This document shows, piece after piece, positions 22,741-64,000 of a DNA stretch of 64,000 bases (positions are counted from its first letter, which is position 1; each line of letters opens with the position of its first letter). The notes under the pieces are model-generated. The model did not search any database. It saw only the letters and a list, made by a program, of their open reading frames with translations, and was not told the DNA's origin. The DNA is taken from IMG/VR virus record IMGVR_UViG_3300045988_096839; one strand, written 5' to 3'. This DNA is from a virus. The translations under genes and the position numbers were made by a program.

Positions 22741-22751
22741 TCTTTGTAATT

Positions 22752-30331: not shown

Positions 30332-30339
30332 ATCTCATT

Positions 30340-30603: not shown

Positions 30604-30621
30604 TTCATATTTTAATAAAAT

Positions 30622-31217: not shown

Positions 31218-31315
31218 TGCAGCTACATGGGCTAATGAAGCGATATTAATAGAACTTGAAATACAGTGTGAGAGGGAGTCGCGTCCCTCTAGTCCACAAA
31301 CCAAATTATTTAGTC

Positions 31316-34722: not shown

Positions 34723-35713
34723 AATGGATATTTCAATTCCATATTACGAAGATAATTCGCGTATTTCTAACTCTGCCTTAGGTTGGTTTATTAAATATGG
34801 ACCACAATATCTTCGTAACATGTTAGATGGAAAAGAAGAAGGTTTAAAAGGTTCTTTCCTTGAAAAAGGTACTATGATTCATGAATATATTCTTCAACCA
34901 GATGAATTCTGGAAAGATTATATAATTCTTGATTTTGAAGTACCTAAAGTAAAACAACAAAAAGATTTATGTGAATGCTATGCACATTTAATCGAAGTAG
35001 AACCTTTAGAGTCTAAAGAAACTTTAGCTTTAAAAGCATATCGTCAATCTTATTCTAATAGTAAGAAAGATGATGTAGTAAAAGAAGAAGCTTTAAAAAT
35101 AATAGATACTTATTCTCAGTATATAGAATATTGTAAGAATAAGGATACTAAAAAGGTAATATCTTTTGCTGATTTAAATACGCTTAAAAAGATTAAAGAT
35201 AACATTAAAGAACACAAAAAGGCAAATGAATTATTATTCAATTTGCCTGACACATTTAAAGCGTATAACGAATTCCATATAAATTGGGAAGTACCGAAAT
35301 ACAATAACATAAAATGTAAATCTCTACTTGATAGAGTATGTTTTGACCACGTTAATAAGAAAATTATCTTAATTGACTTAAAAACAACACAAAATGTCTA
35401 TAATTTTGCACATTCTGTAGAAGAATATGATTATTTTAGACAAATTGCATTTTATGGACTTGCAATACAATGGTATATGCAAGAGGTTTTAAATCTTAAT
35501 TCTGAAGATTATGATTTTGAAGCCTATATTATTGCTATTGGAAAAGATAGTAATAATGAAATTAGAGTTTTTAATATGAATAAACAAGAGATATTGAGTC
35601 AAAAAGTAGACCTAATATCAGAAACTCTCAAAGAAATATCATATCATATCAATTCAGGAAATTGGACTCATACTCGTAATTATTATGAGAATGACGGAGT
35701 TGAAGAACTATGA
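34709..35713 (+). CDS. PD-(D/E)XK exonuclease (RecB/Cas4-like fold)
   Basis: LLDRVCFD ... ILIDLKTT ... FRQIAFY (D, ExK-like and QxxxY motifs). Confidence 0.55.
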   Translation: MNTNKMDISIPYYEDNSRISNSALGWFIKYGPQYLRNMLDGKEEGLKGSFLEKGTMIHEYILQPDEFWKDYIILDFEVPKVKQQKDLCECYAHLIEVEPLESKETLALKAYRQSYSNSKKDDVVKEEALKIIDTYSQYIEYCKNKDTKKVISFADLNTLKKIKDNIKEHKKANELLFNLPDTFKAYNEFHINWEVPKYNNIKCKSLLDRVCFDHVNKKIILIDLKTTQNVYNFAHSVEEYDYFRQIAFYGLAIQWYMQEVLNLNSEDYDFEAYIIAIGKDSNNEIRVFNMNKQEILSQKVDLISETLKEISYHINSGNWTHTRNYYENDGVEEL

Positions 35714-36228
35714 GAGATTATTTAAATAAAGCTTTACTTTTAATACCTCTTATTGCAAAAGAAAACGAAACAATGCAAAAATGGATAACACCAGGATTCA
35801 TTGGAGCATACTATAAAGACACAAATAAACCTCAATGGGAAGAAAAAATCATAATGGTATTCAATATTAGAGAAATGAACATACGTCCAATATTAAATTG
35901 GAATAATTCAGAATACCGTTATGAAACTTATTCAGAAGAACACAATGGTAAGATATACAATATTTTTGCATATCAAATACCACCAAAATATAAAAAAGAT
36001 TTCAACTTAATAACAAGTGGAAATTATTCAAAAGTATCTTTACAAGTAAAATCGTTAATAACGAATTTTTATTTCAAATCGAAAAAAGGAAAAACAAATC
36101 CTTTATACGAAATGGTAGAAAAGATACTTTATCCGCCAATAACGGAAACTTTAACGAAGAAACGGGAATATACTGGCGCTTTCGGGGGGAAGCAGATATT
36201 AAATATCAACCAGGTCCCGTTGAGTTAA
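35710..36228 (+). CDS. hypothetical protein (172 aa), last plus-strand gene
   Basis: Intact ORF with a TAA stop. Confidence 0.5.
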   Translation: MRDYLNKALLLIPLIAKENETMQKWITPGFIGAYYKDTNKPQWEEKIIMVFNIREMNIRPILNWNNSEYRYETYSEEHNGKIYNIFAYQIPPKYKKDFNLITSGNYSKVSLQVKSLITNFYFKSKKGKTNPLYEMVEKILYPPITETLTKKREYTGAFGGKQILNINQVPLS

Positions 36229-36308: not shown

Positions 36309-39300
36309 TTAATTCTTTTTAGCCAAAAAGTCGAACTCATATTGAATATTCTCTAAACGACTAAGCTGTCTATAGATAGGAATCATTTGTCCAATAGAAT
36401 ATAACAATTTATTTTCCCCATCATTTTTACCAGTAGTATATACATCTGTAGGATGCCATAATCGGTCATACAATCGACCTAAATTATCCACAGCAGACAT
36501 AACTGGAAACGGATTCTGAATAATCTGTGTAAATGACCAAGGATTAAAATAAAATGAAAAATCGGTATAAACACGATATAATTGATAAGCTATGTTCATA
36601 TAAACAATATCAATACCTTCATCGTCATCACCTTCAGCCAATCCTCTAAATACATTAGATAATACATAAGCTGATATAACAAGTATCAATTCTGTAATTG
36701 ATTTTTTCAAATTATTTTTTTCATCGGTTGTTAACTAATTCCATCTTAAAGCAGTACGTTTATCTCTATCCAATTGTTTACCTAAAGCAATTTTGATATT
36801 ATCAATAGCAGGATTATAAAACATTTCTTTACTTATTCTAAGTAATGTACTGTGATATCCTTCAATCCATTCACCACGAATATTATCGTAATATCGTTTG
36901 CTAAAACGTCTTTGGAATGAAGTATAAATCCATTTACGGAACATAAGTAATAATTTACCCCATATGTACTATTGTATAGCAACAGCCCATCTACTATTAT
37001 AGTTACCGTGCATACCCATTAAAGTAGATCTTACTCCCATACTGAACTCATTCATTCTTTTTTCATCAAAATTGGCTACTTTATCGTCTACAACTAATTC
37101 TCCGTTTTTATTAAAACTAAGATAATCAATCATACTACCTAACTCATTACCATTTTTATCTATAGCTTTTAATTTGTATAAAGCTGCTAATAAAAATCTT
37201 GTTTGAGTTAATCTTTCACCAATATTAGTAGTCCAGTAAGCAGCATCTGTAGTAAATAGTCTTTGTACTCCTTTTGCTCTTAAATTAGGATCTCCTGCTT
37301 CATAAATACCAAACCAATCCACTAATTGATTTACAAAATCTTCTGGTACTCTTCTACCAATATCAGCTAACATACTACCTGATATAAGATGTTGCCCAAA
37401 CAATTTACTAGCTTTTAACATCGATTTATGGTCTATCCAACGACTACCAAAAGCTTCAACAAACTGATTTAATTCTGCAACAGTTAAGTTATTAATCATA
37501 CTGATGTAGTTGACACCCATAACACGCATAGAATAATATTTCATTATTGTTTTGGCAAGTTTATCTACAGATATGTTACCAATTTCGGTATTAGTACGAA
37601 TTTGATTACCGTAGAACACCTGATCCAACCATGAAGCAAATAATTTATATGTGTTTTCAGATTTGGTAACAGCTTTTTCTTGTTTACCTTGTAATTTACT
37701 TAGGATTGAAACATTTTGTGTTTCAGTAGATCTATTCTTCAATATTTCTGCTGTCATTAACATAAAATCTTCAATCTAAAGTTTTGCTTGATGCTCTAAT
37801 GCGCTGTGTAACCATCTTGCATAAATAGTAGGTAAATCAAATGATTGTAAATCCAAATTCAATCTTTGATTATAAAACAAAGGAATTTGATTTACTACGT
37901 TACCATTCATATCGGTAAATACTTGTCCAGTCATAGCATCATCTTCTACTAGCATAGAAGCTTCTTTTGCATACTGAACAACTCCGTCTTTAACACCTTT
38001 TACACCATCTTCTGATACTCTTTCTACAAATTCTTTACGTATACCAGGTAATCGATAATTCAATTGTAATCTTGAAGATACACCTTTATCACCAATATCA
38101 TTAAGTTGTTTAAACATCTCCCATAATCGATATTTTACATCATTACTTTGTTTTAATTTCTATAAATTATCATATTTCTTATTAGGATATTTTGAACTGT
38201 TTATAACACGATATTGTTCTAACAAATCATCATATGCTTCATTTATACGATCGAACTGTTCCAGACTAATGATATTTTTATCTCTAAAATATTTCCAAGA
38301 TTTCTTATCTTTACCTTCTGCTCTTATATTCTTTAGTATTTTATTTTTATCACTGTCTTTTAAGTCTGATACTATTTCTTTAACAGCTTGTTCAAATTCA
38401 AACAACAATCCTTCTTTATCAATAATTGGCGCATTTTCGTCATACCATTTTTCAATGGCTTCTTGTCTCTACTAAAAAGTAAGTGAATGGTCGTTGTTTA
38501 ATTCCGTGAACATTTTTCTTCGAGCTACTACAAAAGAGTTAGGCACCTCATTAACAAGATATGCTTGACCATCTACGATTTCGATCATATCGTCGTATAA
38601 CTTTCTATGATCTGACCAGTTACCACCTTTATATTTTTTCTCATATTCGTCAGTCAATTTTATCATTTGACGAACTAATACTTGATATTTATGATCAGCC
38701 TGTTGTGTTTTCTCATCAAATATTTTTACGGCTGCTTGAACAAATGGATCTCTTGCTTGAAAAACATTACCAATATTTGCAGCAATTGTACTACATTCAA
38801 ATATATCATCGGCAACTCGTTTCTGACGATTCAACCACGTTGCAGTCTCCTCATCAATTTTATCACGTATTTCTTCTATTTTATTATCGACCCATTTTTT
38901 CATATCTTTTTCATCTACTCGACGATTATTTTCTTTATATTGCCTTTCGAACTCTAATCGATAATTTGCTTCTATGTTTTTAACATAAGGTGTTACTGCG
39001 TCCATATATAATCTTGAACCAATATCCTTATACGATGATATTATAGATCTTTGTAAAGTAGTTACCTCTTTGATAGAATCTGTTAATGTTTCGTATTCTT
39101 CTTCTGTAAAGAATGATTTAAATCTCTAAACGAAACCAGCAATATCATCAACCATATTAAACGATAAAGCCAAATCTCGATAGTTTCTAAGATATACCAA
39201 ATCCCATGTTACTGGTTCAGCATTTCTTTTACTTTCTTGAGTGTATTTTCTATCTATTTGTTTATATACTCTAGATAATTGGTCTATAGCAGTAATTAGA

Positions 39301-41687
39301 TACTGCATCATAGCTTGAGCTTCAGATGCATTACCTATCTAATCTATTTGATATTCTATAGTTTTAGCCTAACTACGTCTACCAGCTCTTCTTTCAATCT
39401 GAGCTTTATTCTACAAAGATTTAAGAATATCACTTATTATTTCTCTAGCAATATTCATTCTACTTTGCGCATATTCTTGGTTAAGTTTATCATCTTGTTC
39501 TCCAAAAACTTTAGTCTTTATATCATATTCCACTGCTTTTTGTCTTTGGATATGAAATACTCCTAATTTTGGATCAACTTCAAAACTACCCATCTTCTTA
39601 CTAAAGAAAGCCTATTCTACAGTTTGTGTTTTACTATTATATTTATATACTATAGGAATAATACCTCTTTCATCAATTTGAACACCATAACTATTCAGTA
39701 TATGTTCATATGCACCTAACTGAAAATCATAAGCGTTTGTAGCAGTTTTAGCACCATTCTTTGACTTATTTACATAAGAGAATCCCCATAAACGTTTACC
39801 ATCTTTATTTTCAGTCTTACCGTCAAGTTCTATACATTTTGTTTTATAGTCAAATATTGCAAATTTACCAGTTTTTTTATTCTTTAATAGTAAGTCAGTA
39901 GTACCAGCTACACCTTTTTCAAAATCAGCAAGTATTGCTTCTGTTGCTACTAATTCGTAATTTTCTGATATATTCTTATATATTTGCTCTAACTATTGTA
40001 ATGCTTTAGAACTCAAAGCTGCTTGTCTTAATTTTCCAGTAGAAACATTTATAATAGATTTCATAAACGCTTCACGACGATAGGAGCCATTGAACATGCT
40101 TTCCAATACAGCATGAATAGTTGTACCTATTATTCTAGAATCATCATTATACGATCTTTGATTTTCACTAATATCTGAATCATCGTATACCGAATATAAA
40201 AGATTCTACTTAAATGTTGATACAGCTGTAAGTGGCTATCCATTGTACATATAAGTATGAGTATCGTCATCGAACTGTATCTTATTCGCTATTTCTTGTA
40301 GTATTGCTCTTACTTTATTTATGTCTTTTACTCTGTCAGAAGCCTTCTAAAAGTAAATCTGCCCTTCTTTTACAATTTGTTGAAAAATGCCTGATTTTTT
40401 AGCTAAATCTTTTCTTTGTAAAAAAGAATTAGTCAACTACATCTACAATGCTAACTTCATTATAGGTTGACCATTAACTACTGCTTTTATATATTGCCAT
40501 AATTTTTTCCAAAAACCGTAAGCGTCACCTTTTTGTTTAACAACCTACTCACCAATAGCTTGTACTAATGCTTCTTCACTATCATACTTTTGTATAGCTT
40601 TTTGTACTATAGGCGTTTCTCTAAACATTTCGATGTATCTGTGAGCATATTCGTGTGGAAGAGTATCCGCTTGATAGTTATCAGATAACATTATAGTAAT
40701 TGCTTCCAAATCAGTAGTATCTATTCTACCGTATTCACCTTCTGGTAAATTCTGATGCCATAATACAGTTATTTCTGGAAATAATCTTGCCAAAGTATCA
40801 GCAATATGTTTAAACGTTCTATCTGTTATAGCATCTCTTGGAATATATGTTTTATTTTCTTTTGTTTGATGATAAACTTTTTTATTAGAATCTGGTATAA
40901 TATTACTATATTCGATCAACGGCTCTCCGTTTTCATCAACGGTTTTGGATATATTACTGTTTTTCTACCATATAGGAATATTGATTTTATCACCAGATTT
41001 TTTCTTAGATACTTGTCTTTCACCAACTTTAGAAAACTATTCAAATTTACCAAACTTATTTAAAGCGTATATACCATCTTCTGATAATTCTCCCCAAGTA
41101 GAGACCATAGAACCTCCAGGAATAAGATTTATTAACTATTTCCAAAGTATTTTACGTTCTTCGTAAGTAGAAGGTATTGAAGTTTCCCCTCTAGATGTGG
41201 TTAAACTTCCAGTTTTTTCAGTAGATGTTTTAAAATGAACAGAATAAAAATTATCTTCGTTGTCTTTAACCAATTCAAAATAACCTTTTTCATGTTGATC
41301 TTTTAGATAAATTTTAACGGCTCTATTTACTTTATTCGGATCATTTTTCCAAGGTTTTGGATATTCTTCAATATCAACTAAATTGTAATCAACTTTATTT
41401 TTATTAAATATATCATTAGACACATTCAACCAATCACCAAACCAATTTCTAAACTCGTCTGTAAACGTTTTAGCTTTAGCCCGAATAGCTAATACTCTAT
41501 CACCGTTAAAATGGTTTAGAAGGTCTGAAAACAGCTTAGAAGGCTATCCATTGGGTGCAAATTCCAGACCATAACCATTATTTTCTGACAGAACATAGTA
41601 GGCAGCGCTTTCGCTGCCCAATATGTCTGTATATTCATCCAGTTGTTTTTTAACTTCTGGATTTTTTCTTAATAAACATGTTGCCAT
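36309..41687 (-). CDS. giant late protein (1792 codons, TAG read as sense) with zincin-like HExxH motif
   Basis: Ten ORF-track fragments (36309..36710 to 41136..41429) share one frame, and every internal boundary is TAG. My hand check of all gaps found no in-frame TAA or TGA. The ATG at 41685-41687 is preceded by AAGGAG, and the true stop is TAA at 36309-36311. I counted 22 in-frame TAGs. HEYAH lies at 40641-40655. Confidence 0.75.
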
Positions 41688-41689
41688 AA

Positions 41690-44600
41690 TTATTTACACT
41701 CCTTTTCTCTTTTCTTACCATTTTCAGTAAGGTTCTTCTAATCAGTTTCAGTAATAATATTAGATGTTTTATTATTGGTAGTTTTATTATCTGCTGTTTG
41801 CATATCATCGTTGTTTGCAGTAATTAATAATACCTATGCACTAAACGGAGAATTACCATTTTCATCATTGTATTTTGTATCCATTGGACTTACAAATCCT
41901 GCAGGTTTTGCACTTTCTAAGAACTGAACATTTTTTGGGAACGCGTCTATAATTTTCTGCATTTGTTCTTTAGATGCACTACCGATTACTGCTACTTTAG
42001 CTTTAGGATAATTCAACTTACCTTTAATAGAATTAAAATGTATGAATTGTTTATCTTTAAATTCGCTATACTTAACCATATTAGAAGCTTCTCTAGACGC
42101 ATTACCATCATCTACATAAACAACAATATCAGCAGCATCTATTGTAGCTAAATCAGCTTTACCGTTTCCTAATTTACTTAATAATTGAGAGAAATCCATA
42201 GAATCAGTAACAGGTATAGCTTTGTTTACTAATGTTTCATACTTCTTGTTTTCTTTCAAAGTAAGATCGATATCTTGTGAATTACTAAAGTGATCTTCAG
42301 ATTCGTATAACAATGATTTTACTTTACCATCTTGTACATAACCATCTGATCTTACTGCATAAGCTTGGAATTTAAAATTACGATAACCTAATCTTCCTAT
42401 TTTGTAATATACTGGATTAACATAAGTATTACCATCAGCAGATTTAGATGTTATCATATCTCCAATCTTATACAAATCATATAAACCAAGTTTGTTTTTA
42501 ACTTTAACGTATTTTGCGTATAAACCAGTGCTAAAACTTACTAATTTATTAGAACCTTTCTTAATAATAAGAATATTATTATCTCCACTTACAGGGAAAG
42601 ATCTATTATATATCTTACTATTAGAAATATCTTTAGCAAAATCATCATCGAATTGAGCCATCATTAACTCAGCAACTTCGATTATGTCATCGTTAACAAC
42701 ACTATCTGGTTTAGATAAGTTATTCATAAGATTTTCAACATAGTTGTTGTACGTTACTCCATTTACTTCCAAATTAGCTAACAACCTAGGTGGAACCAAA
42801 TCAAATATACTTGTTTTAGTTAAACCTGATGCATTAGTATCTGTACCACCAGTTATAAAGAACATGTAAACTGCCAAATCTTTAGCGTATTGTTGCAATT
42901 TAGCATCATCACTCTCATACAACTCTTGCCAAGCTTGAGTTATGTTTGCTTTGATATCAGTATCATCGCTAACTGCGCTATTAACATTAAAGAACTTAGG
43001 CGACCCAGTAGTTGTTCTAGCTGGTTTCAACATATCAAACAGAATTTTACCTGTATTAGTATATTCAGCTAATTGTTTCATTTCGTTGAATCTATCAACT
43101 ACTGTGTTATCTCCAGCAAGAAATTCTTTTAACGGTAATTGACTATTACTAAATTGTTTAGCAATATAAGCATTAAAGAATGTACTCAGTAAAGCAGTTC
43201 TTAATCTTTGACTAAAGCGTTTAACTTGCATTTTACCGTATGCTCCATAAATACCATATCGTTTAGATATTTTATCTATAGTATTCACATAACCTGGTGA
43301 GAATTCAAGTAATACTTTACTAAATATATTAAACAACGCTTTTACACCGAAATCGTATTTCTCACCTAAGAATGTTTTATCAAACAAATCTTGAGGATTA
43401 CTGAATGTAGTATTATATTCAGAAGAGAATTGTTCGTGAGATTGCATAAACTTAATGATATCATTTGCACTAATACCGTATTTACCAGTATCAATCTGTG
43501 CAGCATTTACCATTGTTCTATAATCACCAGACATTCTCTTAAGATACAAGAACGTATTCAAATATCTAATTTGTTGTTTATACCATTCTTCAGAGTCTGT
43601 TTTCTTGATATTGTTTCTAAGATTCTAAGCGCTCATTTCTTCTGGAGTAGCCTTATCGTTAGGATCATATACATAATCGTCTGGTAATTTATCCACGTAA
43701 TTCTTTATAATTTCCTGTAAATAATTTTCACCAGAAGCTCGTTCAGCATCAACACCTACTTGACCTTTCTTAAGATCTACATAGTTGTCTGCAACTTCAC
43801 AAATTATAGGTTGTCCTAACAAGTAATAAGTATCGTTACCCATACCGCAAGATATTAACATTGATACGATATCAAACGTAAAGTCATTTACATTCATTCG
43901 ACCAATATAGTTATCCTTAACGGCATCCACGAACGCATTAATCAATGCAGATGTACTATCTACAATACTTTCACCATTTCTATCAAATATTCTAGGAATA
44001 CCATTATCTTCCAAAGACAATCCTAAACTATTCAGATAATCGTTATCTTGTAATTTTATAGATGCCATCTGTATAAACGCTCTAACAACGTTATTCAACG
44101 CCATAGGACCGATACCAGCACTAGAACCTGCATTTTTAGTACGTTGCTCTATCTAGAATACAGGATTTAAGAACCATCCACCTTTTTTAGTTCTAGGATC
44201 TTTTGATACACCTTTCAAGTTGTCTATATCGTCTTTGATTGCTCTCAACGGGTCTGTTGTAACATCCAAAGGAGTAACAGTATCAACTCTATGATGTTCA
44301 TTGGTAAGTATTAAGAAATATATATCAAGTAGCACGTTCTGTAACTATTCGATTGACACAGAATCATCATTTAAATGATTTAACAAATTATTCAAATTAT
44401 AATCTATTTTCTGTGCTTTACCATCTTTTATTTTAACATTTGGTCTAGACAAGAACATCTTATCGATATCGAAGTCAGAACCAGTTAATGCAGTAATATC
44501 TGATGGGAACATTATAATATCACCTCTTTGTGGTTCAAATACGTCTACTACCTTAATAGGAATAGTTGAGTTCTGACCCTGAGTAGGTACACGATATGAT

Positions 44601-47600
44601 AAAGCAAACAATATACCTTGATTATCCAAAAGGAATTGTCTTTGAACGTCGAATGATTCGTTCTGTAATCCTGCTTCTTTTATTATATCTTCAAACAAAC
44701 TTATAGATAATTTTACTTCCATAAAACCATCTTCATTATATGATTTAAGTTTGCTATCAGCAGACATCTTATTTTTCAAGATGTTATCATAACCTACACT
44801 AGATACCTGGAATAATGGTTTACCTGGAGTCATAATCTTAATGACTGTCTTTTCCATCAAAGCTATGATTCGAGACTATATCCAGTTTATATTAGGTAAT
44901 GCTGAAGGATGTATAACATATTCACCATCTACAGCTGATAAAGCATCCATCATTTCAGGAGTAGCACCTTGAGTAGAAGCCATATCTTGTACAGCAGACA
45001 TGAATTTTTCTTTATTTACATCAAAAGTATTAGGATCGATACCAAATTTTCCGCAGAAAGTTTTATAACCTCTTAATGTCAAAGCATCCAATACTTGCTG
45101 ATAAATTCTTAACAGTTTATCTCCTTTTACCTATACACCGTTAAGTTTATAAGTATGTTTACGGTCAGTATTTAATATAACTACTTTCATAAACTGGGTA
45201 AGTAAAGCAGCTTTGTTATGTTTATGAGGATCAGTATTTAACTGTTTACCAAAGTTTTCAAATTCCTGCATTTGTTTTGGAGCATTTCTGAATGCTTCTT
45301 TGTCGATTTTACCGTCTTTATCATATAATTCAAAACTAGGTATATTTCCAGTCTTAGTACAGCTTTCCATCTTCATGAAATCAGTTTGTGTTTCTTTCAT
45401 TAAATCATAAACGTCTCTCATGTCATGTTCATCTGCAAATATTTTAAATATTGGAGAAGCAGAAAGCTTATCGTATATTTTAAATATATCTTGACTAGAA
45501 CTGTTAGCATCATTACCAAAGAATACATATTTTAATGAGCCCCATATATAATTTCTAGTAAATCCTAATATTTGACCACGATATTCTTTTGGAGAAATTT
45601 CACCAGATTTAAATTTGTTAAATAAATCTTCAATAGATGCAGTATCAATGTTTAATTGTTGCATCATATTTGCATATTCTGTAGGATTTATTTTCTTTAT
45701 TACATCTAGTTCATCATAATGTTCCAATAAGTCGTATGCGTATTCATCTTTAATGGACCATTCTCCTTGACGCTGTTTTAACTATCTGTACATCTCAGCA
45801 GATACCCACGATTGTGCATCAGTCGGATCAATACTACGATACTTAATCAATCTGATATAAGCGTTATCTGTAACTGCTTTAGCCAACTGTTCGTCAGTAA
45901 GTGGTTCACCTTTTTCGTTTACACCATAAGTTCTACGTTGATCTCTATGTTCTAGATATCTTTGAACAAGTTCACCTTTTTTAGCTTGTGGTATAAGATT
46001 TCCTTTACTGTCTAGCAGTTTCTTATAATTCAAACAATTATATTTTACTTTTCCGTCAAGTGTTTCAGGGACATTCAAACTTTCATCAAATGCATCTACA
46101 CCTAAGAATGTTTTTGCTTCACGCTTAAATTTATCCAAATCGTCCACAGGAGTAGTATTTACTTCTATAACACGATATTCTGAAGCATCGTACAATCTAT
46201 CTTCAGCGAAAGCATTAACTATTGTTCCTTTACCGTTTTTCATTGCAACTGTAGATGTTTGCGCAGAATAACGTTTGTTTACAGCATCAATATCTTTGTA
46301 TTGAGCTTTATCACCAGAAACAAGTTTTTCAAATTCTAGGTTATCACACATGTTGTTCATAACAAAGTATGCTACAGCTCTCATTATGTCCGAACTACTT
46401 AACTTCTTATTACCTGCTGGGTTTATTTTCTTATTATCAAGAATTACATTTTCCGGTAATAATTTATTCTATAGTTCCATCTGACCCAACGATTCAACGG
46501 GATTATATCCAGATATTATTTCTTTTGTATCTAAGAAATCCAATACCTGACGTATATTCCATTCCAACATATTTTCGATATATTGCTTTACTTCATCACG
46601 ATTTAACCATTGTTCTATTTCAGTATTAGTAGTTGATGCTGATATCTTGAAGCCATCTAACAAGTCGTTGAAATGTCTTGATTTGTACCCATTGTTTTTA
46701 GGAGAAACCAAATTTATACCAAAATTACGAACAGTAAATGTTCCATCTGGGTTCTTTATAGGATCACCACCTTTTTTACTATAGTGATAAGCTAATCGTA
46801 AATTTACAAGAAGTGGAGCAACATCTGGTCTCTTAAACAAAGCTTCTTGTTCTTCTTGACTCATTGCAGATATAGATTCTGCTGTGTATTTTTTACCAGT
46901 AGCTTTGTTTACAGCGTTAACGAAGTTATCTCTAACGATATATGCTTCCCTTATGGCTTCTAATTCAGATCTAAAGTATCCTCTGAAAGTATCAACAGCG
47001 TTCTGAGTAACCATGAATTTATAACCTATCTTCTGAATAGGACATTCTTCCATAGGAATACTATCTATGATGTACTGTGTCTTTTTATTAGCAAGTTCAG
47101 GTATACTATGGTAATTAGACAATGCTGTCGTGAAACGATTTAACATATCTTCTGTACCAGTAATACCCAAGAAGTCATTACTATTAAAATAATCACTATC
47201 ATTCACTGTACCAACAAAAGTACGCAATATAGGATAATTCTTCTTAGCTATAAAAGATAACCATTTTGAACCACGATATTTAACTTTCTTTCCATCCAAG
47301 AACTCCTTGGTATAAGGATTATTTGTAAATCTTTTTATGAAATCATTGTTAAATATTAATCTGTTAAAGAATCTAGTAACGTGATTATACTGACCAATAA
47401 TATATGCAGTAGCACCCCCTGCTATTCTTACTGTGTCGTTTTTAGCACTACCTAAGCCTTCACTAGCTAATTGTTCCATTAATAAGAACAATAAAGTATT
47501 ATTATCAGGATTAAATTGATCATTAACGATACTACTTATTTCTTGTTTAGATGTTAACAATCGTTTAGCGAATAGTGAATTCTTCATTTTAAGTAAGAAT

Positions 47601-50600: not shown

Positions 50601-53600
50601 GAATCACTAGATAATTTATCCTTATCTATTCTATAATTCTTAGTAGTAGCAATCCAATTTGCAAATTCTTCTATATTATCAGTTGTTACTTCTGTACCTT
50701 TACCATCTAAAGTATTACCAAAATAAACATGACCATCTTTTATATATACAAGTCTGTCCAAATTGTGATTACTTGGATTTCGTTCAATTGCTTCTGTACC
50801 ATAATACATGAAGTTTCTGATAAATTCACCAACAGATATCTGTTTGTCAACTTTCAAATTCTTATTCATTCCAGAATTAATCATCTGCTCTTCTGAAATA
50901 GAACCATCAGCAACTTTAACCATTAAATCAGCAATAATTCTGGCAATGTTTATATCTATCTTACCAGGGTTTAACTTAACTAAAAGTCTTTGTCTGTTAG
51001 GATTAAAGAATGATGGTAATAACAAGTATACAGATCCAGCTGTACCAGTAGCGCCTTTAACTGATTCCATTTTTCTAGAATGTGTATCAAAACGCATAAT
51101 AGTACCATTTGCTGTAGCATAAGCTAATACCAAAGGTTCAGAATCTTTTCCTTCGAAAGCATCTTCTATTAGATCTTCTATATCTTCTTCTTGATCAGCA
51201 TATTTCTGATATAATTCACTTAATTGCTTTTCTTTTTGCTGTTCTATAAACCATTCTACAACTGCTTTACTTTGTCTTTTTACAGCAGGTTGATTTGGGA
51301 AAGATTTATTATAATCATTCAATACTGTCTAATAGTCAGTATCATAAGCAGACATTAATTGTGATATTTTATCAGATAATTTACCTCTACCATTCAATAT
51401 AGATAAAGCGTTATTAGCAGAATCTTCTACTTGTTTTTGTTCAACTGTTAATAAGTCTTCATCTTCAGTATCTTCATCCTGTTCTTTATTTCTAAGTTTA
51501 TCTATATACGTACGGTATTTATTCTTAGAATAATAGAATTTTCCACTAGCTTCATCGTATATTAAGCCTAAAGCTTGTACTTCATCAATATTTGAATTGA
51601 TAACTTGTTTTCTACGATATGATATTAAACTGTTTCCTACAGGTACACTATCATTACTTGTAAGTACATGTATTATATTACTTGGATCAGTAAGTCTATT
51701 AAACTTACGATTGATGAAATAATCTTTTAATATTCTTTCAGTAGATTTATTAAAAGATAAACCTCTATTATTAAGATTGTCTATGAACTCAGATACGCTC
51801 TAATAGTTTTTAATATCGTCTTCAATTTGTTGACATATTTCAACTATTTCATCCCTTGTTCTATTATCTAATACTAATTGTTCACCATTGAGTTTAATAG
51901 GTAAACGTATTTTCCATCTATTTTGTAAAGCATCTTCTACTTGTGCTTCAGTATTCAAAGATTGCCCACCATCTTCACTATAATTCATGAACAGATTTGG
52001 AGATTCTGACAGCATTTGTTCTACTATAGAATTAGCTAATTTTTGATTATTACCTGCTTTTTTGGTATCAGATGATAAACCAAATATAGGTTTGATATAA
52101 CTTTTTATAAATGTTTCAGGTAATATTACAGAATCACCTAATTCTGATATACCACGTAATAGATAATTTATCGTACCGTATTCCTATTCATTTACTGTTA
52201 TGGTTTCTGGCAAATTATCAACATTATAACCATACTTTTTAACAATATCGATTATATTGTCGATATTTACATTTTGCTATACTTTTTCTGTCTATACGTG
52301 ATTATCGTAGATATCATTTATCTGTTGTCTACTTACTAATTCATCATTCTCGTCATACAAAAGAGGATTATTTGGATTAGCTTCATCTCTAGTATTCTAT
52401 AAGAAAGTGCGCATATAAATTCTTACAGAGCCTTCTTTAATGTTTAAAGTTGGCTGAGCATCACTATCATCCTTCTGTCTTTGAGCAAGATTCATTATCA
52501 TGTTCTCGCGAAGGTTGAATTCTAATTCAGATAATACATTTTCTCTATTACGTGATGTTTCATCAGGCATTACCAATCTTGTAGGAATCAAAGTACCGTT
52601 AACAGTACGTACTCTACCGTTAAATAATACGGTATTTATTGGTAAAGCTCTAACCATGTTCTAATATTGAGCCTTGGTTATAGTAGAATGCTTTCCAGAC
52701 TTAATTTGATTGAACAAATTAAATATTTCTTCTTTTGTCTTACCTTTAGTAAGACGAAGAATCCTTTCATAAGTCTTATATGCAGCAGGTCTATCCCACT
52801 TTATTTTACTACCTTTTTCACTCTTCTTATTAGCAAAATCGTAGTCTTGTACTTCTTCCCATTTTTGAACAGTAACGTACCCTCTCCACTGACTTGATTG
52901 ATTATATGGGTCCATCAATCTATTTGCAGCAGTAACTCCACTCTTGGTACCAGTAAAAGCATATGCGTGGCACTTCAATCTTTTCTTATTTTCTTGTGCA
53001 GTTATTTCTGCTTTTTCAGCATATTCTGGAGTAAGGTCTTGTGTACCAGATGTAGAATCAGGTACTTCTTCTACCGTTCCTTCTTCAGTAGAATCTTCTC
53101 TTTTCTTGTTAGCAGATTCAATTGCAGCATCTACCGCCTTTTGAATGTTTTTTAATTTACCTTCAAAAGTTATTGTTTTTCCTTTATTATCTGTTCTTTG
53201 TAATTTACTCAGATAATCCTAATCTTGATTCAATCTGAATTCTACTATTTTAGAAGTCTAGGCATTCAATAAATCCTATTCAAGATTTTGAATATGATTG
53301 TTTGTTGTTTGTAACTGATTTTGTAAATCTTTTATTTCATCTTCTTTTAAAGAATCATTTGCTAACTGTTTTACAATCTTCTTACGATCATTTTTAAGAT
53401 CTTTTATGTGTTTTCTGATATTATCGATATCCGATGTATCAGTAACATCCATTGCTTTAATTATGCCACCTTCGTCAATAGAAAATTCTGAAGATCTGGG
53501 TAAAAATTTATATTTTTTACCATCTGGAGCAGACCATTCTTGAGTATCGATAGGTAAAGTAAGAGTATTACGTTTTGCATTATATGCTCTATCGCTAGCT

Positions 53601-56600
53601 CTTTTGTTAATTTCGTCAGCAATGTTTTTAGCTTGTGCAGCAATAGTTTTTAATTCGTTATATACTTTCTAATCTTCTTCTGTAAATGAGTCTTTAGGCA
53701 TTTTTTCTAATTGTTTAGTAAATTTATCCAAAGATCTATTTACATAAGATACTTTACCTGCTGCGCTACTAATGGTATTTAAACCATTTGTTAATCTATT
53801 AACAAATTTTTGTAATTCTGTATCACTTACAGCATTATTTAAAGATTCAATGAGAGTATTTACAGAATCGTTTAATTGATTTTCAAGTTCTTCATCAGTT
53901 CTAGCTTTAAACTCCTGTGTTGTTTCAACAGTTTGACCATTAGAGTCACTATTAGCGTCATCTCTTTCTTGAGACTGTGTACGAACACGATCTTTATACT
54001 TCTCAATTAAAGACTTAGTAGATTTGTCACCTTTTTCAAAAGGTTCATACAATTTAGTAAAATAATCCAAGTCGTTCAATTCAGCAATATAATTATCTGA
54101 TGCTGCATTAACATCTGAATCGCTAATTTGATTATTACTGAGTTCTGTTACTATATCTGATGTAGTTTGTTTAAATCTATTAATCGCACCTGTTTGCGAT
54201 TCTATATTCTTTTGAGCTTGATTTATTTTACCTTCAAGATACGGAATCGATAACAATTGTCCTTTTGATCCAATTGCATAGCCTTCTTCTGATTCTCTAG
54301 CTTGTTGAATAAGATTATTATATACTTCTAATTCAGAATTATACAATTCCAAAGTATCATTTAATTCATTCAGCTTACCGAATGCTTCCAATTGTTCAGC
54401 AATTTGATCTTGTAGTATTCTTTTTTGCATGAGCAATTTAGCTTTTCTAGAAGACATTACACCTTGTAATTCTGCCATTGCCACAGAATTATTTGCGTAA
54501 GACATATTCATCTTCTTAAGTAACTGAGCTCCATACGCTTGGTTAGATAATTGTTGCGATTGTCTTTCTATAGAATTAAGCTGTTGATTAATCTTTGCTA
54601 ATTGTGTAGTAAGTTTATGTATACCTTCTATTTGAGAATCTTCTAAAGCAATACCGTGTTTGGCAACAGCGTTTTGAATTACATTATACATAACATCACT
54701 AAACAAAGATGATTCTTTAGATTTTTCATCAAATTGCCTATTAAATTCTTTTCTGGCTTCTTCTTTCTTATCATTCTGTTCGGTAATATTAGTTCTGATA
54801 TTGTTAGCTATTGCTGCATATATATCGGAATCTCTTTCACTTAAACCTAAAGCTTTTGTTTTTTCAGATAGTTGAGCTCTGGTATCTAACAATTGATCAA
54901 TATTTTTACGTTCTTCATTTATATAATTATCAATTTGTTCTTCAGTTGTTTCACCTTTAGCATCTGATATTACCCCTAAATCGTATTTACCTGTTTTTAG
55001 TGCTTCAGAAATATTATCTAATACTTGACCATAGTTTTTACCATTTGCTTTTAAGTCACGCATTGTTTGCAATAAATCTACCGATCTATCAACAAAATCT
55101 TGTTCTTCAAGAGCTCTCTAGAATATATCTCCAAATCTCTTATCATTCTTCATCTGCTTACGAACATCAGCAAGTAAGTCTTTACCAGACATAACCAATG
55201 CTCTTGGATCCAAAGATGAAAGTATCGCACCCGACATATAGTTCTCTTGTAGTTGCGCATCATTAGAATAAACAGGATCGAATGGAGTAAATACAGCAAT
55301 AGTAGATCTTTGTCTATCTAACCAGTTGGATGACATATCATCAAACAACTGACCGTTAGTCAAAGCATTCCAAAAACTACCACTAGCACTCTAATCATCA
55401 AATTCTCCTTTTCCTGCTTTGTCAGCCATTATATACTGAGCACCTTCTTCAGTTGCTTCTTCATACATATTAGCTAATTGTGCAGCACCCCATGATTTTA
55501 ATGCTTTGTTTCTAGTTATTCTTGATAATTCTTTACCAGTAAGAGCAGCTCTGGCTACATCTGCGTTTGCTGCAGCTCTTCGGCTTAACAGTGATTTAAT
55601 AGGATTTGTTGCTTTTTTACCTAAAGCAAAAGCGCCCTCCATAGGATTCAATGCGCCTCTGAACACTTGACTATTTCGGAAGAACGGTACATAGAACAAC
55701 ATATCTGTTGCTACTTCACCGGCTCCTAAAGCCATATTACGTTCATATAATCTAGGTATACCTCTATATGCTCTACGTCGTGCATCTTCAAACTGATTAC
55801 TACCGGAATCAATAGTACCGTTTGCAGCCAATTCTAAAGCTTCTTCATCAGAAATATTAGAATTTTCTCCTCTACTAGCTAATTGTCTTTTAACGTTTTT
55901 TATTACTCGATCAGTATCAATTTTATCTTCTTCTAAGATTTTAGATAAATTTTGTTCATACTGTGAATAAGCTTCAATATCTGATTCTCCTTTTCTAGCT
56001 TGTATACCACCACCAGCTTGAGAAGCTGCAGAAGCTGTTAAACCAACTATTAAACCTCTAGCTAAACCGCGTAAACCACCAGCAACAGCACCAGGTGTTC
56101 CAGCCATAGACGCACCTAATAACGCATCTGCTGCTACTGCCGTTATCGCACCAGAAGCCATAGACGACAATTGATAAGCCCAATCAGAATGAGAACCACC
56201 AAACAGTCCTGGTAATTTATATAAAAAGTTACCAAACGTTGTAGTAGATTCATTAGCTTTTTTAGTAAAATATTGGCTTATATCATAGTTATCTAAAGAT
56301 TCTTGTTGTTCTCTTTTATTTATTTCTCTAGACTGAATAGCATTGTTGTATTCTCTATCTGAATCAGTTTGAATATCAATTAATGATTGTAAATCAGGTA
56401 ACTGTTTATTTGTCCAAACTCCATTTTGTCGTAGTGCATCTAATCTAGATTGAGCTAAATCTCTAGCTTGAGATCTATCAATACCGTAAGTATTATAAAA
56501 ATCTTCGTCAGAAATTGTTTCAGGATAAAGATAATGCATAACCAAAGCTGCATCGCTTTTATTCATTTCTGCACGGTTAATACGGTTATTATCTCTGGTT

Positions 56601-56833
56601 ATCTACGATTCTTGCATATCATTATAGTATTTATGCCAAAAATCGGATAACTACATTCCTTGTACGTTATCCGTTGGTGCTTCATTATAATAATATGCAG
56701 CATCTGCCGATGACTATCTATTAAGATAAGCACCGGCATTCTATCTCATTGCTAAATTTTGCTGTATACGATCATTCAATAATTTTGAGTCTCCCTCTGA
56801 ATAATCGCGTAATAAATCTTTTTTAGTATTCAT
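41690..56833 (-). CDS. giant late polyprotein-like ORF (5047 codons, TAG read as sense) containing a virion RNA-polymerase-like DxDxD motif
   Basis: Nineteen ORF-track fragments (41834..43561 to 55391..56566) share one frame, and all boundaries are TAG. My hand check of every gap found no in-frame TAA or TGA. ATG at 56831-56833, TAA at 41690-41692, about 32 in-frame TAGs. DFDID lies at 44462-44476 and HEAFH at 49097-49111. A coiled-coil segment spans 53.7-55.1 kb and a Gly/Ala-rich segment about 55.9-56.2 kb. Confidence 0.7.
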
Positions 56834-56843
56834 ATTTTTTAAA

Positions 56844-58712
56844 TTACATTAAACCTGCTGTATTATGCGGTAAACCAACCATGTAAGAATCTCCACTATC
56901 TTGGTATCTTACTGAATTTTCTGATTTAGTTGTACCCATATATTTTTCAGCTTGCATGTTAATTAAATTTCTGGTATCATCTGTTACTGGTTCTACTACT
57001 AAAATAGTAGTTTCTACATTACCTTCATCATTATCTGTGGTGGTAGAATATCCTAATTCTTTTAACTAATCGTATTCTCTACCTGTAAACCAAGGAACCA
57101 TTGAATCAGGTAATGCATCTATTGGATATTCAACAGTAACACTCCATGCTAACTCTTGACCGTTTGGAGTGTTTTGCATTGTTACTCCGTTTACACGTTT
57201 TGGTATAGCTCTAGATGGATTTTTAGTTATTGCTTTTTCCAAATCGAAATTTTTATCTTCAGAAAATGGAAAACTACTTGTTAAGAATAAAGGGTTGGTT
57301 GTATCCAAGCCCTAGCTCTTTATAAAATCTTTCATATAAGGATTACTAAGAACATATTGTCTAGGAGTTAACAATTTTCTACCGCTCAAAGTAGGATTGT
57401 TGGAACCGAATAATCTCTGCATATCTACATCAGAATAACCTTGTGTTGGAGTCATTATAGATTCTACAGCTTGATTATACATTTCTTTAACGTATGGCGC
57501 ATATTCAGATTGATTAGAAAATTTAATAGATTTCTTTTTACCTTTTGCTACACCAGCTTGTTTTCTTCCTGCTTCAGATAATCTCCATAGAACGTCGTCC
57601 CCTACTTCTCCCTACTCGTTAATTAGATCACTATTGACAAAAGCTCGTTTCATTCCTTCGAACATTATGGCAGCTTGCATTGCCATGTTATATCCGCTAC
57701 TATCATTTTTAGAAGCCATTTCAGCAGCTTTTCTAGTAAGAACATTTTGATTTGCTGGTTGTTTCTTTAAAGATATTTGTCCAGTTTTTTCATCTGTATC
57801 AAAATTTTCAAGCATCTTTCCGGTAACCACCCTACCTGCATTTTGTACGGCATCCAATGAACCGTATGCTAATCTATCGAAACGATTAACAATATTAGAG
57901 GGTGTTTCACTACTACCTTTACTACTTAATTTTTTTAATTCATAAGGATTAATAGTTTTATCTTCCCATGAAAATTCTCTAGCTCGATTGATAGCCATGT
58001 TTGCAAATTCTTGCTCTGCTTGCTCTCTAGTAAGACCTGCTTTTTGTAATTGTCTAATGTGCTCTTGCGCTTGAGGAGTATTATAAATAGATGACCAATT
58101 TTGCTGAACCATTTTATCAGTTGTATCAATAGATACGCCTCTTACATCCCAAATTCCTTCACTTCTTAAATAAGAAGGCTTTAAGTTATCAACATATGGT
58201 TTTACTAAATCATTTATTGATGTGTATGGTATTGGATTAATATCAGAGAAAATCTTTCCACTACCTAATGTATCGTACTATGATACATCCAAATTATGCC
58301 AATTAGGATTAAACTAATTTGTTTTTATTAAATAAGCTACAGCCTCATCTCTTTTTTTATAAGCTTCAGCACTGGATATTAGCATATTTAATTTGTCATA
58401 TGGAATATTGTTGATTAACGCTGTTATTTTTCCACGACCTTCTTGAGTTTTTAGCATATCTGGATTGTTGACCATTTCATTAACTAACGGTTTAGCTACA
58501 CCAGTAGTCAAGTCATACCAGTTTTGCATATCTTTCAAAGAGGCAGATTTAAAGCTATTCCATACTTTCATATTATCTGATAGAGTTTTCATTGCTGTAT
58601 CAACTCTATCATTGTACTCTTTACCTATTTTATATAACTATTCAAAAGGTATTGGTACATATTGACTTACGTACTAACTTTCTACCGGTTTATCAAATCT
58701 ATTTACTGCCAT
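56844..58712 (-). CDS. late/virion protein (622 codons, TAG read as sense)
   Basis: Fragments 57066..57308, 57612..58112 and 58314..58592 are in one frame. ATG at 58710-58712 and TAA at 56844-56846, with 7 in-frame TAGs, the first at codon 13. Confidence 0.7.
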
Positions 58713-58713
58713 A

Positions 58714-60693
58714 TCATCTAAAATTTCTATATAATTTATTTACGGTATCTTGTGTAGAACCATAATTGAAAAACTCTTTCATATATTCCAACATTGCTTG
58801 ATCTCGATTATTCAAACGATTATCACGAGACATTGATTGCAAAGCTGTACCAAGTTGACTGAGATCAGTATTACGAATGGTTCGAGCAGCTGCTCTATTT
58901 TGAGCATCTTCTTCATATCCTCTATGGAATGCTTCAGTATTATATCTAGCCCTATCGTTATATATACCAATGTTTCTAGCTTTTCTTTCATTTTCAATAT
59001 TATTCTTCTGATTATATGCTTGAGCGATAGCTCTGTTTCTAGCAACTTGTGATTGTACGGCTTGTGCCAAATTAGCACTTCTACCAAACCCACCTGCCTA
59101 ATTAGCATTATATCTTGCAATAGCATTGGTCATATCTATTTCTCGTAATATTGGACTGATATCATAATCTACTGGAGCAAAATGTGGAGAATAAGTAAAT
59201 ACTCTTGCTTTTTCAGGATCACTATTATAAATGTTAGCCATTGGTCCTATTAATGCAGCACCATTAGTTAATATATCAAATAATGATCCATACGATCTAT
59301 CATTACCATTATTAGGATTAGTATTTCTCTTAGGAATATTTATTTTCCCAGGACCAGTATAAATATAATTATTTGTGAAATTATGGTCGCCTATTTTATT
59401 CTATACACTGTAACTCTATCCACTAATAGGTACTTCAATATTATGTAAAAATGAACTTCTAGAACGTACTGGAGCAACACTATTTGCTTCATCCGTAAAA
59501 GGAGTAGAAGATATGTCAAAGTAATCATGTACTTGTCCATACAGACCATCCTGAACATTCTTAACTACAGCATCTTCAAATGACATACCGGTTTTTAAAT
59601 TTCTCTGTATTTGTGGCAAATCGCTTAATGTTTTGTAAGCGTTATCGTAATTATCTTTGTTTTTTAAAAACGTACGTATGGATTCACCAGCTTGTTTATA
59701 CGCATTCTTATCAGCACTTTTGTACCAAGAAGTTGTAGCGCGATTTCTGTCATGACGTATATTTGGATTATAATTGGGGTTAACTCTAATAAACAACTCA
59801 TTAAGTTTATCTCTATCCTCAGCACTAGTAACAGGTTCTGGTAATCCAGGTGTACCTCCTGCATATTTACCAACTTTATTCTTTATTCCTCTTTTAGCTT
59901 TTACTTGTTCTTGTAAGGCAAGTAATTCATTATATTTTTTCTAATTATTACGATCATTTAGCATTTGTGTATTCTGCGCATAAATATCGTTTCCTTTTTT
60001 CTTACCTGTTTTCATATACTTTTTACCAGCTTGTGCAAAAGTTTCATTAGTTCCTGGAACTTTTAATTTATCACTTAATACCTAAGTTCCAACAGGAACA
60101 TTAACTAAATTACTATCTGTAGGTTTTCCTTGTTCAGGAATTTGACTTATTTCTCCATCTGGGGTTCTCATTAATTCACCATCATCCAAGTAAGCTAAAG
60201 TAGTTGGTAATATACCTCCGTAAGCAGCTAAAGAATAATCATTATCACCATATTCATTAGCCCATTCTTCTTGAGCAGCTGCAGTAGCGTTAGCATCAGC
60301 AATACCTTGATTCACCCTTCTCCATTGAGCTCTAACTCTATTTCTACTACGTCTGCCTTTAATACCTTTACCTTCGATATATTCACCAGTATCAGTATTG
60401 ACAGAATCAGATGTACCAACCATAGCGCCTATACCTTTTGTTAACATACCTGCAGCTTTACCAACTACGCTACCAATTGGACCAAAGGCACTACCTACTG
60501 TTTCTAATCCAGTAGCAATACCACCAGTAATAGCATCTGTTTTAGCATTTCCACTAGAAGGTATTAACCCGTTTCCTAAATCTAATCCTGCACCTACTGC
60601 ATTTCCTAATTTATTTAATTGACCAGTAGCTTTATCAATTAATCCTCCTAAAAAGTATGAATTTATATCTTTATTTTTTCTTATTCTTTTCAT
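58714..60693 (-). CDS. late/virion protein with Gly-rich N-terminal region (659 codons, TAG read as sense)
   Basis: Fragments 58714..59070, 59416..59796 and 60082..60693 are in one frame. The ATG at 60691-60693 overlaps the upstream TGA (ATGA). The gene's own stop is TGA at 58714-58716, with 5 in-frame TAGs. Confidence 0.7.
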
Positions 60694-63600: not shown

Positions 63601-64000
63601 TCATTATCTTCTCCGGAAGGATATACATCTAATACGTTCATAGGATTTATAGCGTCATCATCATATGGAATACTATCTATCTAACTAAATGAATAAGTTG
63701 TTCCATTACCATTAGAATCCTATAATAAACACTATTGATTTTTATTAAATCTGAAACTTCTAGTATCCCAATCTTTAGGTATATCCCAATCAGATGATTC
63801 TATATTTGCAAAGAACAGTCTGTTTTTAAAAGAAGTCATTATCTATGCTTTAAATATATACGGTATGATATCATTGAATTCTTCTTGAGTAACAGTAGTT
63901 AAGCTTTGCATTAAAGCATCTGTTATGGTATAATTTAAATTACCTTTTGATATTCTATCTTGTAGTATTATAGAAATCTCTGGTTCATTTAAATTATCTT
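60690..64000 (-). CDS. large late (tail/fibre-like) protein, 5-prime end beyond the window (TAG read as sense)
   Basis: Six fragments (60936..61232 to 63369..63641) share one frame, which stays open to position 64000. The stop is TGA at 60690-60692, with 14 in-frame TAGs. An ATG at 63837-63839 sits two codons (one intervening) after a TAG (63843-63845), so there may be two genes. No family recognised. Confidence 0.6.

Follow-up and report, generated by a model that had tools for sequence, protein, structure and literature searches.

Does TAG encode an amino acid in the late genes of this virus and, if so, which amino acid and read by what? The question is raised by IMG/VR virus record IMGVR_UViG_3300045988_096839, from which we analyzed a stretch of 64 kb (64,000 nucleotides (nt), hereafter the window) out of a genome of ~97 kb. 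The window is AT-rich (GC ~30%), and its late block occupies the minus strand from 36309 to 63998. An initial annotation, made from the sequence of the window, had proposed that TAG is a sense codon throughout this block and never a terminator. We consider it very likely that the phage has two coding regimes, with early and middle genes that are free of TAG and late genes in which TAG means glutamine (Gln) and is decoded by a phage tRNA with a CUA anticodon, tRNA(CUA).

When only TAA and TGA are read as stops, five back-to-back minus-strand open reading frames (ORFs) span 36309-63998. They are given here with the genes that begin at their first ATG and the lengths of the products in amino acids (aa).

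36309-41693, minus strand: late ORF 1, 1795 codons, 22 in-frame TAG, stop TAA; gene 1 (36309..41687, 22 TAG) encodes a virion-block protein of 1792 aa.
41690-56848, minus strand: late ORF 2, 5053 codons, 32 in-frame TAG, stop TAA; gene 2, the giant gene (41690..56833, 32 TAG), encodes 5047 aa.
56844-58739, minus strand: late ORF 3, 632 codons, 7 in-frame TAG, stop TAA; gene 3 (56844..58712) encodes 622 aa with 7 TAG, the first at codons 13 and 25.
58714-60732, minus strand: late ORF 4, 673 codons, 6 in-frame TAG, stop TGA; gene 4 (58714..60693) encodes 659 aa, with 5 TAG from the first ATG.
60690-63998, minus strand: late ORF 5, open at the window edge, at least 1103 codons, 14 TAG, stop TGA; gene 5, whose 5' end lies beyond the window, encodes more than 1073 aa of a virion structural or 'stabilization' protein.

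From their first ATG onward, the five late genes contain 80 in-frame TAG codons, and no credible gene in the window ends in TAG. Not a single TAA or TGA occurs in the 9222 codons of the five frames, compared with 471 and 1247 in the two off-frames, which excludes a chance origin of the late frames. The genes are tightly coupled, as the start of gene 4 overlaps the stop of gene 5 in an ATGA (60690-60693) and the remaining junctions are spacers of 1 nt (58713), 10 nt (56834-56843) and 2 nt (41688-41689). The initial annotation had estimated about 80 in-frame TAGs without an in-frame TAA or TGA, and had described three genes ending in TAA, two ending in TGA and closely coupled junctions. All of this is reproduced by the ORF coordinates.

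Read with the standard code, the late region has 42 minus-strand fragments of at least 50 aa that terminate at TAG, a number that matches the 41 fragments in five frames counted in the initial annotation. Coding density, a comparison that the annotation had proposed, came out in its favor: minus-strand coverage of the late region by ORFs of at least 60 aa is 75% under the standard code and 99.6% when TAG is sense. Taken by itself, the break-up into more than 40 fragments speaks for TAG-interrupted frames that represent pseudogenes, artefacts of assembly or sequencing, or short separate genes. However, TAA and TGA are completely absent from the same 9222 codons, and identical TAGs were seen in independent assemblies from other samples. 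Gene 1 has 1083 homologues, of which the best 120 are mostly full length (1556-2900 aa), and none of these 120 terminates at the TAG positions. Synteny with a known genome (see below), the match of the giant ORF to the RNA polymerase of PDB 6VR4 and the presence of the species in 360 data blocks also argue against degraded or artefactual genes. Defective or short genes are thus already refuted as an explanation, and we give them a negligible chance. Products of 1792 and 5047 aa are already listed in public gene calls for an identical contig of 97,444 nt, so a recoded translation table was used there.

The genes outside the late block form two divergent blocks.

29..8264, minus strand: leftward TAG-free block with ThyX, Dam methylase and dATP/dGTP diphosphohydrolase genes (Pfam) and small ORFs.
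8300..36228, plus strand: rightward TAG-free early/replication block, collinear with the replication block of the crAss-like phage cr6_1.

TAG is absent from all 8152 codons of the 42 tabulated early and middle ORFs. The coding-strand ORFs of at least 50 aa outside the late block end in TAA (55), TGA (14) or TAG (3). None of the three that end in TAG was retained as a gene: those at 5841-6035 and 34160-34315 are alternative frames within longer genes, and the one at 14834-15067 overlies a tRNA gene. The early and middle genes are therefore intact with TAA or TGA stops, as the initial annotation had read them. The late TAG block comprises the five window genes and, beyond the window, the terminase, portal and head proteins.

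Pfam domains Crass_capsid and P22_portal were found on neighboring genes, and TerL shares 72-97% identity with its counterparts on 80 IMG/VR contigs and 74% with the one of cr115_1 (Suoliviridae, Uncouvirinae). The phage is a member of Crassvirales, family Suoliviridae. Comparisons of TerL and the stabilization protein place it probably in subfamily Uncouvirinae. One protein of the species is indexed in 360 data blocks, on contigs of ~96-97 kb. A DNA search of the annotated phage collection matched only a patch of ~300 bp.

The nearest layout we found is that of cr6_1 (Afonbuvirus faecalis, NC_055894; Suoliviridae, Bearivirinae, code 15), whose replication and five-gene virion blocks are collinear with ours. 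Its five late genes stand in the same order and have similar sizes (1392, 646, 611, 4400 and 1561 aa for genes 5 to 1), so the comparison with orthologs suggested in the initial annotation agrees with the five-gene reading, as do the 1083 homologues of gene 1. Both genomes have a leftward block of small genes, a tRNA(CUA), terminase, portal and capsid genes, and a convergent five-gene block opposite the replication module. They also share TAG in late genes only, a capsid gene that is (almost) free of TAG, and stops restricted to TAA and TGA. In sequence, cr6_1 is distant, with 36% aa identity in the stabilization protein. Genes 1-5 of cr6_1 carry 29, 57, 10, 9 and 19 TAGs (124), compared with 22, 32, 7, 5 and 14 (80) here. 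Since its homologues carry more TAGs, the present case is not extreme, as the initial annotation had called it.

Which amino acid TAG encodes can be read from the codons that replace it. Gene 1 was aligned codon by codon with its counterparts in four other genomes, two of which are strains 95% identical in protein. Compared with these two strains, 14 of the 22 TAGs are shared, eight are TAG only in the window and five only in the strains. In all 13 differences the partner codon is CAA or CAG, and TAT, TAC, TTG, TCG, TGG, AAG and GAG never stand opposite TAG in this close-strain comparison. The portal gene of five strains gave the same result, with CAA or CAG as the partner of TAG in four of four variable columns. 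In the TAG columns of 81 TerL genes (72-97% identity, 4-14 TAG each), the partner codon is by far most often CAA or CAG. When 82 homologues of gene 1 are aligned, the TAG columns are enriched most strongly in Q (3.9x) and next in E, M, D and K, which commonly substitute for it. Per 1000 codons, the late genes contain 8.7 TAG and 8.5 CAG, and TAG makes up 17% of their Gln codons. Given the close-strain exchanges, the TerL column partners, the Q enrichment and the similar frequencies of TAG and CAG, TAG as Gln is well supported at the evolutionary level, in agreement with the assignment favored in the initial annotation.

Alternatively, TAG could be read as another residue (glutamate (Glu), or leucine, serine or tyrosine) or ambiguously, depending on the suppressor tRNA of the strain. 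In distant homologues, Glu ranks second in enrichment at TAG columns (2.7x). The tRNA(CUA) of the window genome begins with UCCCC, unlike the Gln-like types (UGGGG), and strains that are 94-99% identical hold unrelated tRNA(CUA) genes at one site, including a class II type. Conversely, the close-strain exchanges of TAG run in both directions and involve only CAA and CAG, also in the strain with the class II tRNA, while GAA, GAG, TAT, TTG and TCG were never seen in the gene 1 and portal comparisons. TAG columns of TerL pair chiefly with CAA and CAG whichever tRNA type is present. That a class II suppressor alters the meaning of TAG found no support in the portal and TerL codon comparisons. The CUA anticodon itself favors recognition by GlnRS, as in amber suppressors of E. 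coli, which also counts against a residue other than Gln. We regard such a reading as very unlikely and retain Gln as the meaning of TAG.

No CUA tRNA was found within the window by Rfam or by ARAGORN, whether run with default settings, with introns allowed or at a relaxed threshold, which gave noise only. The flanks of window genes were fetched from public assemblies, and loci taken from these carry L numbers. Two of them, L010 and L017, come from the 97,444-nt Logan contig SRR8675875_490 and match the window with 100% identity along 20.5 and 13.1 kb. L017 contains the missing tRNA.

L017 13702-13776, late-gene strand: tRNA(CUA) of 75 nt, found by ARAGORN and Rfam, 582-656 nt beyond window position 1.
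L017 14086-16149: TerL gene, 14 TAG, downstream of tRNA(CUA).

The order at L017 is leftward-block genes (0 TAG), a pseudoknot leader (described below), tRNA(CUA), a minihelix, a hairpin with TTTTTT, TerL, portal and further late genes. With no TAG before it and the TAG-rich TerL and portal genes after it, the suppressor sits exactly at the border of the two coding regimes. In cr6_1, a tRNA(CUA) occupies the same position. The leftward block is transcribed toward the tRNA(CUA) gene, beyond which lie the terminase, portal and capsid genes, and tRNA(CUA) appears to belong to the TAG-free transcription unit. The initial annotation had stated that the decoder is not obvious in the window. This was correct in that the window holds no CUA tRNA, but the decoder lies just beyond its left edge.

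Two further structures lie between the suppressor and TerL. At L017 13886-13953 there is a conserved tRNA-like minihelix with a 6-bp acceptor-like stem and a perfect T arm, which lacks a normal anticodon loop. At L017 14037-14072 a hairpin is followed by TTTTTT; it is terminator-like by eye and was not called by a consensus scan. If this hairpin terminates transcription, the suppressor would belong to the TAG-free upstream unit.

The tRNA(CUA) might nevertheless not be the working decoder, its role being taken by a host suppressor, by a near-cognate tRNA-Gln(CUG) with release factor 1 disabled, or by another phage RNA. This is suggested by the weak and irregular structure of tRNA(CUA), by published surveys that detect suppressors in only ~40% of TAG-recoded phages, and by an odd tRNA-like element with a CUG anticodon and a shortened anticodon stem in the window.

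15325..15394, plus strand: tRNA-like element with loop CUCUGAA and anticodon CUG (Gln-like), Rfam 39.1 bits, missed by ARAGORN.

This element has perfect acceptor and T arms and an anticodon stem of only 3 bp. By analogy with protist tRNAs that have short anticodon stems and read stop codons, it is a speculative candidate for an auxiliary Gln decoder or near-cognate reader of UAG. Weighing against any such substitute, ARAGORN found a CUA tRNA at the locus in 57 of 80 IMG/VR relatives and in 11 of 11 near-identical strain contigs, and most of the remaining relatives have non-canonical or interrupted CUA versions. The position of tRNA(CUA) exactly at the border between TAG-free and TAG-rich genes also argues for it, as does its upkeep through repeated replacement of the cassette, which suggests that the gene is needed. 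A different decoder is in our view still less probable than a residue other than Gln, and we continue with tRNA(CUA) as the decoder. In L028, L037, L039, L061 and L089, a tRNA-like element that follows the leader likewise has a CUCUGAA loop.

How the two coding regimes would work follows from the distribution of TAG. Early and middle genes avoid TAG as both sense codon and stop, so the standard machinery of the host would read them correctly at any time. As tRNA(CUA) accumulates and is charged with Gln, it would out-compete release factor 1 at UAG and allow full translation of the late genes. Before there is enough of it, late mRNAs would give truncated products only. Because the late genes would yield only such products until tRNA(CUA) accumulates, recoding would act as a post-transcriptional lock on the virion and packaging proteins.

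Besides the enrichment of Glu in distant homologues, several points weigh against this picture. The tRNA(CUA) scores only 32.8 bits in Rfam against a threshold of 29, its T stem is degenerate (two of five Watson-Crick pairs in the canonical register), and its acceptor stem has 8 bp in the ARAGORN drawing. We infer its expression, its charging with Gln and its sufficiency, and the timing model is taken from published hypotheses. Pfam scans of the 40 window ORFs of at least 90 aa revealed no domain of a release factor or aminoacyl-tRNA synthetase that could tilt the competition, and neither kind of protein is among the public gene calls around tRNA(CUA). Finally, a product of 5047 aa with 32 UAG codons requires ~99% suppression per codon for a yield of 72%; the computed yield of this RNA-polymerase protein at 90% suppression is 3%.

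The density of TAG differs among the late genes. It was determined at L017 14086-21326, L007 18128-20528 and window 36309-63998.

TerL: 20.3 TAG per 1000 codons (14 TAG in 688 codons; 52% of its Gln codons).
486-aa protein: 14.4 TAG per 1000 codons.
Stabilization protein (gene 5): 12.7 TAG per 1000 codons.
Gene 1: 12.3 TAG per 1000 codons.
Portal: 8.4 TAG per 1000 codons (7 TAG).
RNA-polymerase protein: 6.3 TAG per 1000 codons.
Major capsid protein: 2.5 TAG per 1000 codons (1 TAG in the 398 available codons).
386-aa protein adjoining the capsid gene: 0 TAG.

The capsid gene of cr6_1 also has no TAG. TAG density may help to set protein yield.

Late-gene recoding has precedents, as the initial annotation had pointed out for crAss-like phages: 243 crAss-like phages, mostly in groups Beta, Delta and Zeta, recode TAG to Gln or TGA to tryptophan (Trp), mostly in late genes (Yutin 2021, PMC7886860). 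The Delta group of that study is now Suoliviridae. Code 15 in crAss-like phages has been proven by metaproteomics (Peters 2022, PMC9523058). The phage resembles the code-switch model for recoded gut phages (Borges et al. 2021/2022) in its standard-code replication genes and recoded structural genes, in a suppressor tRNA located in code-neutral sequence ahead of the recoded block, and in the depletion of TAG as a stop in an AT-rich genome (30% GC here). The 'code-change module' of that model, a release factor (RF2) and/or aminoacyl-tRNA synthetase gene by the suppressor, such as one for a glutaminyl-tRNA synthetase or amidotransferase, was not encountered among the window ORFs and the calls around the tRNA. 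Borges et al. found the lysis cassette to be the most TAG-biased, and the lysis cassette of this phage lies outside the window. Phages that use code 4 with TGA as Trp (Agate, Jade) and TAG-recoded Lak megaphages likewise have a phage suppressor tRNA, reassignment mainly in late genes and a standard-code host. Unlike our phage, they belong to other lineages, and code 4 involves a different codon and amino acid.

We next consider the suppressor site itself. The loci are L017 13640-13776 (on the minus strand, 520-656 nt left of window position 1), L004 10820-10953, L016 13340-13451 and L020-L099, and the leader and tRNA of cr6_1 lie at NC_055894 25904-26015. Contigs that are 94-99% identical to the window contain three unrelated tRNA(CUA) genes at this one site, of 75 nt, 73 nt and 89 nt, the last of class II. 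Among the 80 IMG/VR relatives (TerL 72-97% identical), ARAGORN placed a CUA tRNA upstream of TerL in 57, and these belong to at least four types that are unrelated to one another.

tRNA(CUA) type, Gln-like, begins with UGGGG.
tRNA(CUA) type, begins with UGCCC.
tRNA(CUA) type, begins with UCCCC and has a degenerate T stem.
tRNA(CUA) type, class II with a long variable arm, without the GG/T-psi-C signature.

The suppressor of cr6_1 is of the Gln-like UGG... type, whereas that of our genome begins with UCCCC and has the degenerate T stem. One and the same leader stands upstream of tRNAs of different types.

The leader is an H-type pseudoknot of ~35 nt that ends 3-13 nt before the tRNA. It consists of stem 1 (4-6 bp), stem 2 (5-9 bp) and an A/U-rich loop 3 of 4-10 nt, often UUUAAAGAA. 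Both stems are kept and covary in 12 sequence versions, including that of cr6_1. Since MAFFT aligned the leaders out of register, they were tested against shuffled sequences one by one, and each version was equalled by only 0-4 of 300 shuffles; the background rate of the pseudoknot finder is ~0.008 per 50 nt. Some of the pairs are G-U, so the structure works only on the RNA strand that is sense for the tRNA. No Rfam family matched the leader, and no article in the literature collection searched joins pseudoknot, suppressor tRNA and Crassvirales.

The leader also served as a beacon in the 23 loci without a called suppressor, where it led to non-canonical CUA tRNAs, split CUA tRNAs and tandem tRNA-like elements. 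CUA tRNAs that are split or have non-canonical D and T arms, and were missed by ARAGORN, are found in L030, L036, L054, L057, L079, L085, L042, L055, L062 and L066. Some CUA tRNAs are split by an insertion after CUCU of the anticodon loop, including that of cr115_1 (L055, NC_055898), and this insertion is likely an intron. Leader-found CUA tRNAs may explain some of the recoded crAss-like genomes that seem to be 'suppressor-less'.

The same leader type precedes neighboring tRNA-Met(CAU) genes (L064, L069, L076, L088, L094, L098 and others), so it is general to tRNAs rather than specific to suppressors. A hairpin with a conserved AUCGUAAG loop precedes the tRNA-Met leader, and a similar AUCGUAA string stands upstream of the tRNA-like element at window position 15325. 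The same pseudoknot search in the window did not yield convincing hits in excess (30 compared with ~20 in shuffles), and no leader pseudoknot precedes the window's own tRNAs.

Considering the decoder as a swappable cassette, we tentatively propose, as a possibility with the odds somewhat against it, that the leader is an undescribed RNA element that governs the maturation, stability or timing of phage tRNAs and hence the code switch. It might act as a small ribozyme, a modulator of RNase P or a protector of the 3' end of the upstream mRNA. Known ribozyme classes were considered and rejected: hepatitis delta virus (HDV)-like/theta, pistol, hatchet and RAGATH-7 gave no Rfam match, and the two-stem topology is unlike that of HDV-like ribozymes. 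Around the suppressor tRNA, no Rfam ribozyme matched even at E-values up to 1 and 10. A resemblance of the leader to RAGATH-7 (3' domain) and pistol (P1/pseudoknot part) was noted by eye only.

Theta ribozymes, which are minimal HDV-like ribozymes, flank phage suppressor tRNAs (Kienbeck et al. 2024, PMC10879173). Like the leader, they are small structured RNAs directly beside phage tRNAs, including suppressors, and this analogy suggests RNA-based control of tRNA maturation during the code switch. They differ in that they abut the 3' end of the tRNA and form a nested double pseudoknot with a catalytic C, whereas the leader lies 5' and has two stems.

Other structured RNAs cluster at the start of the rightward block (8666-11364, plus strand), among them three hatchet ribozymes of 70-93 bits, the first two of which follow tRNA-Leu(UAA).

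9091-9253, plus strand: hatchet ribozyme.
9365-9489, plus strand: hatchet ribozyme.
11236-11364, plus strand: hatchet ribozyme.

Sub-threshold matches in this cluster are to RAGATH-7 (8666-8848), RAGATH-6 (9704-9856) and twister-P1 (10022-10082). The equivalent region of cr6_1 contains hatchet, RAGATH-7-associated and RAGATH-9 matches and a group I intron.

Among the late genes, gene 1 begins with a strongly conserved N-terminal domain of ~88 aa, which is 75% identical to that of a distant homologue (P0114). Because this identity holds even where the remainder of the homologues has diverged, the domain may serve this virion protein as a signal for packaging or ejection. At the DNA level, the late block matches other crAss-like genomes nowhere but in window 41424-41724 (67-77% identity). 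This ~300-bp patch was considered as a mobile or RNA element and rejected, as it encodes the conserved N-terminal domain of gene 1.

In the protein encoded by gene 2, the C-terminal 1950 of the 5047 aa match PDB 6VR4, the DNA-dependent RNA polymerase of phage phi14:2 (E=1e-30).

~43784-44353, minus strand: region within the 5047-aa gene homologous to phi14:2 gp66, with the DFDID motif.

From this homology, we conclude that the giant protein contains a predicted virion-packaged RNA polymerase. Genes 3 and 4 are syntenic with cr6_1 gp35 (611 aa) and gp34 (646 aa), respectively. Gene 5 matches phrog_28748 (E=2e-115), and by tblastn it matched only Crassvirales, best of all cr6_1 (35.9% identity over 99% of the query). 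PHROGs searches with genes 1, 3 and 4 gave no match, and neither did a PDB sequence search with gene 5.

Strains of this species vary in inteins and homing endonucleases (L004, L006, L008, L009, L015, L016 and L018). Across strains, TerL has 687 aa, or 1033-1429 aa with Intein_splicing and LAGLIDADG domains. The portal has 831 aa, or ~1190 aa with Hom_end domains, and the product of the ThyX gene ranges between 370 and 769 aa. A LAGLIDADG_2 ORF interrupts the giant RNA-polymerase gene in L011 and L012.

The remaining features of the window lie in the two TAG-free blocks. None of the three tRNA genes listed here is the decoder.

8939..9025, plus strand: tRNA-Leu(UAA).
14820..14946, plus strand: tRNA-Arg(UCG)-like gene whose anticodon loop carries a 55-nt insertion, found by Rfam (56.7 bits) and by ARAGORN with introns.
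17408-17959, plus strand: extracytoplasmic function (ECF)-type sigma factor, rightward block.
24710..24783, plus strand: tRNA-Ile(GAU).
24799-26649, plus strand: DNA-polymerase-sized ORF, rightward block.

The rightward block also encodes a DnaB helicase, an AAA_24 (Sak4-like) protein, a primase, an AAA ATPase, a Mre11-like phosphoesterase and a PD-(D/E)XK nuclease. The insertion in the tRNA-Arg(UCG)-like gene, at position 37/38, is much too small to be a group I intron; it can base-pair with the region around the anticodon and form a long hairpin. Either it is removed by splicing of an unknown kind, or the product is a tRNA-like RNA whose anticodon arm is extended. At 14900-15194 there is an overlapping weak match to 'permuted tmRNA' (E=0.037). 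Where the leftward and rightward blocks diverge, the intergenic region contains an 11-bp perfect inverted repeat, GGTCATACCAA ... TTGGTATGACC, at 8203-8246. Possible roles are those of a bidirectional terminator, an operator or an element related to an origin.

The recoding of TAG in late genes is a known phenomenon, found here in a species that is missing from the annotated phage collection. A standard-code annotation would split 28 kb into more than 40 fragments and hide five large virion proteins, one of them the 5047-aa virion RNA-polymerase protein, all of which are restored when TAG is read as Gln. The phage adds one abundant uncultured gut species to the documented set of crAss-like phages with a late lock, and shows very cleanly a suppressor gene exactly at the border of the coding regimes. 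The part that may be new is the suppressor cassette with its leader. The leader could also serve as a beacon for 'missing' suppressors in recoded phages.

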